From an uncultured Methanosarcinaceae archaeon (GTDB lineage Archaea > Halobacteriota > Methanosarcinia > Methanosarcinales > Methanosarcinaceae), in NCBI GenBank assembly GCA_963721455.1, contig CAVRJG010000054.1, positions 96,001-160,000 of the forward strand: a stretch of DNA of 64,000 nt, in the 5' to 3' direction. The position numbers were made by a program, and so were the translations under genes. Shown here piece by piece: positions 29,994 to 52,651 of the stretch. Each line of letters opens with the position of its first letter. Positions within the stretch are counted from its first letter, which is position 1. The notes under the pieces are model-generated. The model was not told the DNA's origin. It worked only from the letters and a program-made list of their open reading frames with translations, and made no database searches.

Positions 29994-31567
29994 GTAACTA
30001 TTCAGCCATACCTTTAGTAAAAGCAATTTTTCCTCTTTCCGAGGAAAAATTGGATATAAAATGAATCAATTCTCTCCTTGATGAAACGTGAAGAGATTCT
30101 TGCTTTGTGTGCTTCAAACCCTGAAGTTATTGCTTACATTGAGAGTCTTGAATCTCAAATTAAAGAAATCACTGAAAGATTAGTAACCTTAGAGGCTCGT
30201 TTGAATCAAAACAGCCAAAATAGCAGTAAACCTCCTTCAACCGATGTTTTTTGTAATGAAAAACCTAAACCTAAGGGTCTGCGAAAGAGTAGCGGCAAAA
30301 AAGCTGGTGGCCAAAAAGGTCATCCTGGAAAGACTCTTGAAATGGTTGAAAACCCTGATTAGATTATATTCAATTCACCGGACTGCTGCGAAAATTGTGG
30401 TCATCATCTTGAATATACTGAAATTCAGGACTATGAACGCAGACAAGAAGCTGAAATTCCTCCTGTTCAAATCATATTTACTGAACATCGTTGTGAAATC
30501 AAGAAGTGTCCTCACTGCGGGAAAGTTAACAAAGGCTCTTTTCCAGAGTCTATAAAATTCCCAATTCAATATGGTCCTCGTCTTTTAGCCTCAATTCTGT
30601 ATTTTAGGAACTATCAATTGATTCCTTATGAAAGGACTTGTGATTTAGTAGAGGATGTCTACGGTATACGTATTAGCCCAGCTACCATAAAAAGAGCCGA
30701 AAAGGAATGTTTCCAGAAACTGGAACCTTTTGAAAAAGCTGCGATGGAACATCTATTAGCAGCCCATACTGCTTATTGTGACGAGACAGGGATGAGAGTT
30801 TTAGGGACGAAATGGTGGCTTCATGTTGTCTCAAACAGTCTGTGGACCTATTATTTCCCGCATCCTAAAAGAGGGACAGAAGCAATGGATGCTCTGGGAT
30901 TCCTTCCGAAATACAATGGAGTAGCAGTTCATGATGGATTCGCTTCATACAACAAGTATGAATGTGAACATGCTCTGTGCAACGCTCATCTTAAACGGGA
31001 ACTTACTGGAATTGAAGAGAATTTTGAGCAGCAATGGGCTAAAGAGATAAATGAACTCCTCAGTGAGATGAAAAAGTATACTGATGAATGCAGAGAGATG
31101 GAAATTTCAATAGATCCAGAAAAAGTAAGAGAATTCGAGAGAATATACGATGCAATAATTCAAGAAGGAATCGAAGAAAATCCACCTCCTGACATCTCTA
31201 AAGATATGGTGAAAAAGAAAGGAAGGCCAGCACAAACAAAAGCAAAGAATCTCCTTGATAGGTTCATAATACACAAGAAACCGATTCTGAGATTCCTAAA
31301 TAACCTGAGAGTTTCGTTTGATAACAATCAAGCAGAGCGAGACATCAGAATGATGAAGCTACAACAGAAAATTTCGGGAACTTTCCGAAGCATAGAAGGA
31401 GCGGTAGCTTTCTGCAGAATTAGGGCATACATATCCTCAATTAAAAAGAATGGCATGAATGTCATGGATGCTATTCTAGCGGCGCTCAATGGAGCGCCGC
31501 TATTATCCTGAGAATTGCAGCATTTTGCTGAAAAAACATACTTTTTCATCAGTGGCTGAATAGTTAC
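29994..31567 (+). mobile_element. IS66-family insertion sequence (single-ORF type)
   Basis: TIRs GTAACTATTCAGCCA / TGGCTGAATAGTTAC; flanking ttgaatt duplication. Confidence 0.92.
30078..31511 (+). CDS. IS66 transposase with one in-frame TAG at 30360-30362 (pyrrolysine read-through or pseudogene)
   Basis: Track ORFs 30078-30362 and 30618-31511 share a frame and the interval is open apart from the TAG; NSSKPPS, CxxC zinc ribbon, DETG, HDG, CNAH, DNNQAERDIR. Confidence 0.85.
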
Positions 31568-39099: not shown

Positions 39100-39830
39100 A
39101 TTTGATTACTCCAATAGTTTCTGCAAATCTATGCGAATCATATTCTGCTCCAGGTCGAATAACGATTCTTAATAGAAGACCCTCCGAAGTTACAGCTGCA
39201 TGAATCTTTATTCCGTTTCTCTTTTGAATCTATTATACTCGACACTTTCTCCCCTTTTTGTTTCTACAAAACTGCTATCTACTGCAACAATGCCAGGGGA
39301 GATCTGTCCTCGCTCCGACCTTCCGCAGATGTCTTCAAGAAAATAACATCTCTCTTGCTATCGTTTTTGGATGTTTGCTCTAAAATTTGCAATTATTATC
39401 TCAACTGAAGCTTCCTGAAATATAAGTTAGAAGCTTTCAATGAAGATACAAGATTGAAAAGTGTAGGACATTTCAAAAAAACATGTTTGAATAAGCAGGG
39501 CAATTTTCAGAAAAACGATAGCAGAAAAAATTGTGAAAATTGAACGGACATCTGCGGAAGTCAGCTCGCTGATAAGAATCATCTTTGGGATAATTTACAA
39601 TCATATCCCAAATACCTTCTTCAGATCACCGTTTTAAATGTCTCCATAAAGTTACGTAAGACCCGTATTTGTTGGGCATATCTCTCCATTGACAACCTGT
39701 GACAATAACATAAAGAATACCGTTGATAATCTGACGATCATTTACTCTCTTTCTCCCATCCTCAGGTTGGGGAGGAAGGTGTGAGCGAATATAAGCCCAT
39801 TGAGCATCACTAAGTTCTTCTAAATGTATG
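39100..39830 (-). pseudogene. Degraded IS5-family transposase interrupted by a MITE
   Basis: Minus-strand fragments GRKRVNDRQIINGILYVIVTGCQWRDMPNKYGS, AVDSSFV and GIKIHAAVTSEGL..IVI.PG.EYDS. Confidence 0.8.
39315..39564. mobile_element. MITE family C (250 bp)
   Basis: TIRs ccgaccttccgcagatgtc / gacatctgcggaagtcag; 6-bp TSD ctcgct (39309-39314, 39565-39570). Confidence 0.88.
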
Positions 39831-42267: not shown

Positions 42268-42802
42268 ATTTTAACAGACATACCCTGGGAATAAGACCTT
42301 ACTTTCGGCAGATAACTTGTTTTTCCTGATGTCTTTAGTGATAGCGTTTTGTTGGAAAACACATTACCCCCATACTAAACATTATTGCAAAAATAGTTTT
42401 GTTGTTTACATGTCTCATGAGATTCGAACCATATGTTAACCGCTCAGGACTCTACATTTATTTGCATAATGTTTATAAAACGCAGTCACTTAATATATTC
42501 TAATTCTAATGTCGACCTGGCGAAAACTCAGAATCAATTTCCCTGTGTTCAGACCATATGCCCGAATCTATGTGAATTTCCCCTGTGTTAACATTCAAGA
42601 TAAATTTTATTACTTGGGGAGTGCGGAGGGTCACGAATACCCCTTTTGGGTGGGGTGGCCGCATGCAATTTGATTTTAAGTTAATCAAAGCATCCTGAAA
42701 CAAGATTCAAGACCGTAGTTACTCCACGCTTCTTCGGCATCTCAGCAGGACAGATAAGCAATTCGAAATTTTCACCTAAAAATAGACCGCAATAAAAGTG
42801 GC

Positions 42803-51445: not shown

Positions 51446-51578
51446 AAGAAAGCACTTCTAATTATTTTCTAAACATAAAGAACTATTTGAATCTCAGAAA
51501 TAAACTTGTTTCTAAACTATATAACATTTTTTACAAACATCGACTGGGGAAAATATTACCTGAGAAAATCTGATTAAA

Positions 51579-52578
51579 CTGACCTTACACAGATGTCTTC
51601 AAAAAATAACCTTTTTCATGCTATCGTTTTCAGGTAATAACCTAAAAATCTGAAATCATTATCTCGATTCTTACCCAAAAAAACAGAAGTGAAAACTCGT
51701 TAGTTGAATCACAAAGTCTAAAGATGTGAGAGATTTAAGAGATACAGATTACAATAATTCAATATGATTTTGACAAAAAAGATGTCATTAAAAATTGTGA
51801 AAATTGAAAAGACCTGTCGGGTAAGTAGGGAGGATTACTCCTCCTTTCTCCCCTAGGAACCGTACTTGAAAGTTTCCCTTCATACGGCTCGAGTGTTTTC
51901 AAACCCTTTCTGTATCAGGCACCAGTTATTTGCATAACTGATTTTGTGTTCCGGATAACAGCCCACTAACATAATTGTCTGTAAGCCTCTCACCTATTGG
52001 TGTCGTTGAGTATCTTACATTTGTAGGTTTGTTTCCATTCACACAAGAAAACACCATCAGTAAGTCTGCATCCTTTCGGATTGAGGCAAAGTTTGAACCT
52101 CTATCCAATCCATTACAGATTGGCATTCGCTTTTTACTGAATCCTCTACCCTCAATGCCATCGTTATCCCTCGCGGGAGTCCTACCCATAATGGGAGCAT
52201 TTAGGGCTTACCAAGTTCCATACTACGAATAATGTGAATACCTTAGAAGCCATCTATAAACCGAGAATCATTTGTCCATTTGCCATAATGTCCGCAGACC
52301 CATTACAGCCTGATTCTGTACCTTTTGGTTAAGCGTATCAGCCTGCTTTCGCTTATTCCACTTCACGATTCTTACGATGGTTCACTTTATGTTCTTCATA
52401 GTATTCGTATCCTAACCGATTACCAAAGTCAGGTTCCTTGATTTCTCGATAGTGTCCTGTGAGCTTCACACACAAATGTTACCATTTATGCATGTCACAG
52501 TAGGATTACCTCAAATGGAAGAGGTAGCGAATGGTGCAATTCATAGTATAGCTTCTTGTCGCACCTGCGGAAAGTGGG
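51579..52578. mobile_element. MITE family C (251 bp once the intron is removed), carrying a group II intron in its right TIR
   Basis: Left TIR ctgaccttacacagatgtc; split right TIR gacct|ctgcggaaagtggg; 6-bp TSD attaaa (51573-51578, 52579-52584); body homologous to 39315-39564. Confidence 0.88.
51816..52564 (-). ncRNA. ORF-less group II intron ribozyme (749 nt)
   Basis: Minus strand starts GTGCG and ends ...CCCGAC; domain V GAGCCGTATGAAGGGAAACTTTCAAGTACGGTTC followed by a domain VI hairpin; EBS1 CTGCGGA (52291-52297) and EBS2 AAGTGG (52358-52363) complementary to the 5' exon. Confidence 0.95.
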
Positions 52579-52651
52579 ATTAAACTTCAAATGTGCCTGA
52601 TAAATTCTGGAAAGGATTTTCCCTGCCAGTTTATTTACTTCGGACACTGCC

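Follow-up and report, generated by a model that had tools for sequence, protein, structure and literature searches.

We analysed a 64,000-nucleotide stretch of an uncultured Methanosarcinaceae archaeon (assembly GCA_963721455.1, contig CAVRJG010000054.1, positions 96,001 to 160,000; hereafter the window) that contains a group II intron inserted in a miniature inverted-repeat transposable element (MITE). The intron lies on the minus strand and carries no open reading frame (ORF) for a reverse transcriptase (RT). It entered the 251-bp MITE 14 nt inside one of its terminal inverted repeats (TIRs). This arrangement was described in an original prediction made from the sequence of the window, and its 749-nt ORF-less intron is matched by two Rfam models and agrees with our boundaries at every coordinate.

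The intron begins with GTGCG at 52564 and ends with ..CCGAC at 51816. Counting Rfam matches only above the gathering score, we found RF02012 (group-II-D1D4-7) on the minus strand at 52526-52377 (63.5 bits, cut-off 34) and RF00029 (Intron_gpII, domains V/VI) at 51892-51816 (63.5 bits, cut-off 40), the second over model positions 1-77, its full length. The largest ORF within the intron is 87 aa, and no RT ORF was found inside its 749 nt. Its minimum free energy (MFE) fold, at -234 kcal/mol (z -6.6 versus 20 shuffles), divides at the top level into six domains, intron nt 7-353, 358-417, 425-508, 510-673, 675-708 and 712-746. Six introns from five genomes, with 78-98% identity to the window intron, give a consensus fold that retains these six domains and in which 43 of 240 pairs are compensatory (both sides changed); the six-domain structure anticipated for this intron was thereby obtained. 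The locus shows the domain V triad, a domain VI, a 5' GUGYG, six domains and pairing of exon-binding sites (EBS) with intron-binding sites (IBS) in the 5' exon. The unpaired UA of domain VI presumably includes the branch A.

The host has the properties of a MITE, being small, non-coding and multicopy, with TIRs related to those of autonomous insertion sequences (ISs) and a target-site duplication (TSD). The predicted 6-bp duplication is exact, with ATTAAA on both sides. The two ends of the MITE agree at 15 of the first 21 positions, so its far TIR is degenerate. Three further species of the genus (L032, L033, L036) lack both MITE and intron in the orthologous intergenic region, which aligns across the junction after removal of the 1000-bp element plus one ATTAAA. 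The intron-free sibling of 250 bp proposed at 39315-39564 was likewise borne out, with CTCGCT on both sides. Its TIRs are better matched than those of the host MITE, and 180 of 261 aligned columns are identical between the two elements.

Pairing between the intron and its target is exact. As proposed, EBS1 pairs with IBS1 at 7/7 positions and EBS2 with IBS2 at 6/6, and both IBS fall within the TIR. The stem that presents EBS1 includes two compensatory pairs in the consensus fold, at columns 262/283 and 266/279. The coordinates of all these features are collected in Table 1.

Table 1. Features of the intron, its host MITE and the sibling MITE in the window.
Feature	Position	Strand	Remarks
Host MITE without intron	51579-51815 + 52565-52578		251 bp
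5' exon CCCACTTTCCGCAG	52565-52578	-	outer 14 nt of MITE TIR; IBS2 + IBS1
3' exon	51579-51815	-	other 237 bp of MITE (inner TIR, body, degenerate far TIR)
TSD ATTAAA, left	51573-51578	unstranded	
TSD ATTAAA, right	52579-52584	unstranded	
Intron-free sibling MITE	39315-39564		250 bp; CTCGCT at 39309-39314 and 39565-39570
ORF-less group II intron	51816-52564	-	749 nt; Rfam, genome copies, fold
Domain I	52212-52558	-	intron nt 7-353, MFE; bears EBS1, EBS2, candidate EBS3
Domain II	52148-52207	-	MFE and consensus fold
Domain III	52057-52140	-	MFE and consensus fold
Domain IV	51892-52055	-	bears relic of first ~24 RT codons; frame stop 51926
Domain V	51857-51890	-	AGC triad, GAAA loop; RF00029 alignment
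Domain VI	51819-51853	-	unpaired UA 7-8 nt from 3' end; RF00029 alignment
EBS1 CTGCGGA	52291-52297	-	terminal loop of TAATG/CATTA stem-loop, 52286-52305
EBS2 AAGTGG	52358-52363	-	
IBS1 TCCGCAG	52565-52571	-	7/7 pairs with EBS1; in TIR tip
IBS2 CCACTT	52572-52577	-	6/6 pairs with EBS2; in TIR tip
Candidate EBS3	52256	-	intron nt 309, U
ORF in domain IV, RT relic	stop 51926	-	frame ..NVRYSTTPIGERLTD..; domain IV

Searching the genome of origin (G000, whose contigs carry C-labels here) with the intron by BLAST returned 21 rows. Seven copies at different loci are 100% identical over all 749 nt, and single copies are 99.9, 97.1, 95.9, 91.3, 90.7 and 80.4% identical. Three longer copies of 2143-2148 nt match nt 1-588 (~83%) and nt 639-732 (71%), and the remaining rows are a 166-nt fragment and one distant match. 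Infernal found 18 domain V/VI matches in the genome. The full-length set comprises 16 introns, 13 of them ORF-less and 3 RT-encoding. Fifteen of the 16 directly follow the 14-nt TIR tip, and the sequence beyond the tip differs from copy to copy; a random 14-mer would fit the tip consensus with a probability of 6.6e-4. The flanks thus answer the question, raised with the original prediction, of whether other copies sit in the same TIR family. The seven identical copies at different loci, together with those at 99.9, 97 and 96%, suggest recent mobility.

Several hosts could be delimited. A mate TIR and an exact duplication were found for the window copy and for those at C71 (250 bp) and C15:59908-62310 (260 bp). 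The C44 copy lies in the same family and flank as that of C71, and the copies at C52:170705 and C59 lie in a 142-bp MITE family. The C54:92263 copy has an empty homologue at C51:3539. The copy at C52:222944 occupies a degenerate IS1634-type IS that is 80% identical to a reference IS over 1613 bp and whose transposase frame is split (260 + 320 aa). Judged by eye, the 3' exons at C30, C25/C12, C15:179531 and C19 are inner TIR sequence. The hosts thus belong to at least four families, with both ends of the 250-bp family used. Nine separate loci of the ..CCGCAG type are occupied when copies with shared flanks (C44 and C71; C25 and C12) are merged.

Three groups of these loci have peculiarities of their own. 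At C59:1454-2600, a 166-nt 5' fragment and a full copy lie ~220 nt apart, each after the same 36-nt flank and TIR tip, which looks like a local duplication. The introns at C25:9190-9940 and C12:49124-48373, 91% identical to the window intron and sharing flanks, start with ATTCG instead of GTGCG, and their 5' splice site is probably dead. The RT-encoding introns at C15:59908-62310 and C15:179517-181860 are 99.6% identical over 2338 bp beginning exactly at the TIR tip; the far MITE end of the second locus was not found on contig C15. A MITE carrying an RT intron may here have been copied as one unit.

The TIR tip is a widespread transposon end in this genome. A genome-wide search for inverted TIR-like 14-mers with identical 6-bp flanks yielded 35 pairs, of which we judged 31 credible and 4 due to chance (four mismatches in each arm, >1.4 kb). 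The credible pairs bound MITE families of ~142, 235, 250, 260 and 277 bp as well as IS-sized elements. The 532-aa protein of one 1927-bp IS, whose TIRs are related, matches NF033559, IS1634-family transposase (E 2.3e-83), and the Pfam domains DUF4277 and DDE_Tnp_1. The tips are of two main types, ..TTCCGCAG and ..TTCGGCAG. We rejected the idea that the upstream 14-mer merely reflects what the intron needs as an IBS, since the same 14-mer tips many intron-free elements with mates and 6-bp duplications. Three further TIR-tip-like sequences in the window, at 42298 (+), 58750 (-) and 26751 (+), comprise one ..TTCGGCAG and two degenerate ..CCGCAG/..CCGGAG versions, all without an intron.

The sixteenth full-length copy occupies a second type of transposon end. 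The host of this ORF-less intron (C49:4669-3888; 80% identical to the window intron) is an IS256-family IS of 1268 bp, and the intron is inserted 23 nt into its TIR. The genome holds 29 such ends with unrelated upstream sequences, bounding 1268-bp elements with 8-9-bp duplications as well as 136-bp derivatives. The 375-aa ORF of the 1268-bp element matches NF033543, IS256-family (E 1.4e-106). Two of the 29 ends are occupied, one by the full copy on C49 and one by a 48-nt 5' fragment at C50:20012.

We found relatives of the intron in 46 of 59 genomes from the genus, its own included. We examined 69 loci from other genomes, 57 with an intron 5' end and 12 without. At 34 of the 57, the 5' exon is within 3 mismatches of the TIR-tip consensus, each random 14-mer having the low chance given above. 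The other 23 comprise 2 in which this motif is displaced by a single base, 6 with the IS256-type motif and 15 with other sequences. Mate TIRs were sought at 11 loci (the window being L001), in 4 of which the intron 3' end was located. Exact duplications were found at L001, L002 (142-bp MITE, TTGAAT) and L003 (251-bp MITE, ATCTAA), and this search found none at L005. Together, the censuses of the genome and the genus rule out a one-off insertion.

The intron sub-lineages differ in their exon-binding sites, and their targets differ with them. The EBS1/IBS1 partners are CTGCGGA/TCCGCAG in the ORF-less copies, CTGCCGA/TCGGCAG in the C25/C12 introns and TACAGAA/TTCTGTA in the C49 intron. The EBS2/IBS2 partners are AAGTGG/CCACTT in the ORF-less copies, AAGCAG/CTGCTT and AAGTCA/TGACTT. 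In the RT-encoding copies, CTGCCGA/TCGGCAG is combined with AAGCAG/CTGCTT and both pairings are perfect. In other species, introns with EBS2 AAGTCA occupy CTGACTT tips (L014, L039, L054), and unrelated targets likewise complement the EBS of their own introns (L006, L011, L044/45, L064).

A third site is a weak candidate. Intron nt 309 is U in 9 distinct introns whose 3' exon begins with A and C in 3 whose 3' exon begins with G; one copy identical to the window intron, hence with U in this column, has a 3' exon starting with T. We treat nt 309 as a weak candidate for EBS3, because the pattern amounts to one switch. A second candidate column, in the loop after EBS2, was dropped when L003 broke its pattern. 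EBS1 and EBS2 thus co-vary with the TIR variant occupied, as does the candidate EBS3, and sub-lineages are matched to TIR variants of IS1634-family ISs and MITEs, with one matched to the IS256-family TIR.

A likely source of RT is present in the same genome. The RT-encoding relative that the original prediction suggested looking for exists there in three copies, the long introns, which encode a 492-aa intron-encoded protein (IEP) with RVT_N, RVT_1 and GIIM domains, a TIGR04416 match (E 1e-105) and a YADD motif. No nuclease domain was detected in this IEP with Pfam or NCBIfam. The nearest solved structure is 6me0_C (E 1.3e-151), which we take to be from a CL-class (chloroplast-like) cyanobacterial intron, and the IEP may belong to the same class. 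The copies thus combine placement in IS inverted repeats, use of both ends and an IEP with no detected nuclease domain, which characterise targeting of inverted repeats. The ORF-less introns also have the marks of mobilisation in trans, namely no IEP of their own, IEP-encoding relatives in the genome and identical recent copies. By tblastn, the IEP was found in the genome only in the three long copies and in an ORF on C35. The C35 intron (C35:17147-15037) is a fourth RT-encoding one (IEP 56% aa identity) and has inserted 180 nt into a different multicopy element that also exists in empty form on C54, C36, C48, C19 and C50. An intron on C45 has unique exons.

The short ORF in domain IV was suggested to be what remains of a deleted RT, and alignment supports this. 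The ORF-less intron aligns with the long intron to about codon 24 of the RT ORF (NVRYSTT..RLTD versus NVSISTI..KLTD), with the domain IV ORF itself matching about codons 8-23, and alignment resumes ~27 nt beyond the RT stop codon. Because it aligns on both sides of the missing stretch, we interpret the ORF as a relic of the RT N-terminus left by a deletion of ~1.4 kb. The retained 5' part may have been kept for an IEP binding site.

We consider it very likely that a non-autonomous group II intron retrohomed into the outer TIR of this MITE using RT supplied in trans, and that it belongs to a clade specialised on transposon ends; we assign this reading a probability of roughly 0.85. Because relatives in this and related genomes occupy like sites, the family appears to live on mobile-element ends. 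The intron RNA would first be transcribed and folded. Transcription by read-through is plausible, because the intron is co-oriented with a 371-aa minus-strand ORF that lies 73 nt upstream of the MITE. The folded RNA would recognise the last 13 nt of the TIR tip via EBS2/IBS2 and EBS1/IBS1, and probably the next base via EBS3. An IEP from a sister intron would be bound in trans, the three RT-encoding introns of the genome being the likeliest source. Reverse splicing would then take place after position 14, into the TIR strand that reads from the tip inward. The cDNA would be copied without an endonuclease, presumably primed by nascent strands of the replication fork as for RmInt1 and RmInt2. 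We rejected a transposase-made 3'-OH as the primer, as the 3'-OH of the tip lies upstream of the insertion, on the wrong side. An inverted repeat would present the target on both strands. Splitting the ~19-nt conserved TIR at 14|15 should disable that transposon end, and insertion may immobilise the MITE.

Site choice bears on this reading in both directions. The genome contains 11 occupied and 26 unoccupied rows of the ..CCGCAG type; 15 of the 26 were accepted as TIRs from their 3' context, and duplicates were counted once. For the ORF-less intron, sites with a perfect IBS2 are 6 occupied and 2 empty, versus 3 occupied and 13 empty for imperfect ones (Fisher p=0.02). With the RT intron, 3 CTGCTT sites carry a copy and 11 do not, against 0 with a copy and 59 without among the other variants (p=0.006). 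We regard these tables as a trend, not proof, because the rows were sorted by hand and the copies are related. The proposed dependence of site choice on IBS2 thus holds statistically but not absolutely: two perfect sites are empty, and at C44 an identical intron occupies a CCGACC site with 4/6 IBS2 pairs. CCGACC is also the sequence of the sibling's other TIR, which is empty, so the sibling does not lack an intron for want of a usable site.

The excess of perfect IBS2 sites could also stem from co-conversion of the 5' exon. Site choice would then be independent of IBS2, and the perfect IBS2 would be written into the target by the donor's 5' exon during integration. Co-conversion would predict what is seen in two species, where the left end of the 250-bp family is CCCAC in occupied copies and CTGAC in most empty ones; yet an empty copy at C8:84750 already reads CCCAC at the same end. 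Identical introns also sit in unconverted CCGACC and CCTACT tips, and the RT intron shows the same kind of preference for CTGCTT, a variant present at 11 empty sites as well. We consider this account unlikely.

Further points against the favoured reading concern the host and the RT. With its far TIR agreeing at only 15/21 positions, the host MITE may have been immobile already. The closest RT intron has a different EBS1 and EBS2 and is only ~83% identical in domains I-III, so its service to the ORF-less RNA is assumed. Two introns identical to the window intron, at C13:38650-39412 and C8:87548-88310, have the TIR tip on their 5' side and a 3' exon that is not TIR-like; deletion beside the intron is one possible cause.

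RNA data bear on whether the intron is still active. Fifteen RNA runs contain part of the stretch, and we analysed four metatranscriptomes among them (X1, X2, X5 and X7). In X1, X2 and X7, contigs span just the intron and the 14-nt tip, with loose ends at 52578 and 51815, a pattern consistent with many genomic contexts having nothing but the TIR tip in common. X5 also gives low-depth coverage of parts of the left flank and the MITE side, with no join across the intron. No ligated exons for the window locus were seen in the four runs, three of which cover intron and tip only; this also counts against the favoured reading, though it does not show that splicing is absent. A 238-nt contig in X7 links the two intron ends, 52564 and 51816 (nt 749 followed by nt 1), without mismatches apart from one 1-nt insertion seen in all four runs. 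Its simplest reading is a circle of full-length intron RNA. A head-to-tail tandem in DNA was sought as its source, and such a junction was present in 0/59 genomes, although collapsed repeats in draft assemblies could mask one. The junction comes from one contig in one of four runs, and a DNA tandem in an unsampled genome could have produced it.

These data frame a second alternative, in which the intron is a dead relic that neither splices nor moves and persists because MITE DNA is neutral. The missing IEP and ligated exons are in keeping with decay, as are degenerate relatives such as the ATTCG-starting C25/C12 introns and the many copies in other genomes that are 5' fragments. Seven 100% identical copies at different loci argue the other way, as do the intact catalytic motifs with full-length Rfam scores, the compensatory changes that preserve pairing, and the 3'-to-5' junction in RNA that has no DNA counterpart in the 59 genomes. 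We therefore regard a dead relic as highly improbable. Least credible of all is a single entry followed by multiplication of the intron-bearing element through transposition or segmental duplication: the long identity of the two C15 loci from the TIR tip onward, the flanks shared by C44 and C71 and by C25 and C12, and the C59 duplication speak for it, but copies of identical sequence are found in four or more unrelated host families, at one end or the other and with flanks of their own, EBS and IBS covary among sub-lineages, every host family has empty siblings, and the second C15 locus shows no far MITE end.

Elsewhere in the window, a 477-aa transposase-like ORF at 30078-31511 (+) depends on readthrough of a single in-frame TAG to stay open. 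That TAG stands at the start of a match to PYLIS_6, the Rfam pyrrolysine insertion element, at 30360-30459 (108 bits, cut-off 80).

Introns in the inverted repeats of transposons have a bacterial precedent, which we compare here from the portions of the literature consulted. In Sinorhizobium meliloti GR4, ISRm17 harbours all seven copies of RmInt2 in its inverted repeats (Martinez-Rodriguez et al. 2014, PMC4615759; PMC5894124). The IEP of RmInt2 has no endonuclease, an unpaired IBS2 position is tolerated, and its authors propose that inverted-repeat targets double the sites and guarantee one on the lagging-strand template (PMC4615759, PMC5894124). The introns described here resemble it in occupying either inverted repeat of an IS, in an IEP without a detected endonuclease and in tolerating imperfect EBS2/IBS2 pairing. 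Targeting of inverted repeats is thus not categorically new. RmInt2, however, is bacterial, autonomous with its own RT, confined in those accounts to one IS family and tested at the bench, whereas the present introns are archaeal, mostly ORF-less, hosted in part by MITEs, associated with two IS families through several EBS/TIR variants, spread over many species of the genus and known from sequence alone.

Other systems share parts of this pattern. In Methanosarcina acetivorans, ORF-less and RT-encoding introns occur together, with flanking exons that lack coding ORFs, which was read as site-specific homing (Dai & Zimmerly 2003, as reviewed in PMC4424553 and PMC2882425). This is the same genus and the same coexistence of intron types, but the cited reviews describe the M. 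acetivorans introns as nested by homing into other group II introns (PMC4424553, PMC2882425). Placement of Methanosarcina introns in TIRs or MITEs was not found in the literature searched, which did not include the two papers that would most probably mention such flanks (Simon et al. 2008; Dai & Zimmerly 2003). In Thermosynechococcus elongatus, ORF-less introns multiply with IEPs borrowed from their relatives, and new sites become available as the EBS diverge (Mohr et al. 2010, PMC2882425); that case is cyanobacterial, was shown experimentally and, as described there, concerns targets other than transposon termini. RmInt1 has its natural target in the multicopy IS ISRm2011-2, and a role in curbing the spread of this IS has been proposed for it (PMC5894124). 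Its target lies inside the IS and not in the TIR, and the C35 intron, 180 nt inside a multicopy element, resembles the RmInt1 case.

What is added here is a wider range of cases, another host domain and parasites layered on one another, the principle of inverted-repeat targeting having been published for one bacterial intron. Tentatively, and as something we would not yet bet on, the introns may form an archaeal clade with a transposon-tip niche, whose EBS1, EBS2 and EBS3 have been repeatedly retuned across the genus to TIR variants of at least two unrelated IS families (IS1634 and IS256). ORF-less members would outnumber their donors, act as hyperparasites that split TIRs and so brake ISs and MITEs, and sometimes ride as a composite of MITE and RT intron. 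The matched EBS/TIR variants provide a natural series on how group II introns change targets, and may guide targetron-style tools for methanogens. The window intron is a clear natural example of a retroelement that has specialised on the part of a DNA transposon least free to vary, the tip recognised by its transposase, and of a non-autonomous element within a non-autonomous element. If splitting the TIR disables transposition, such introns would act as an inherent check on the expansion of ISs and MITEs in the IS-rich genomes of Methanosarcina.

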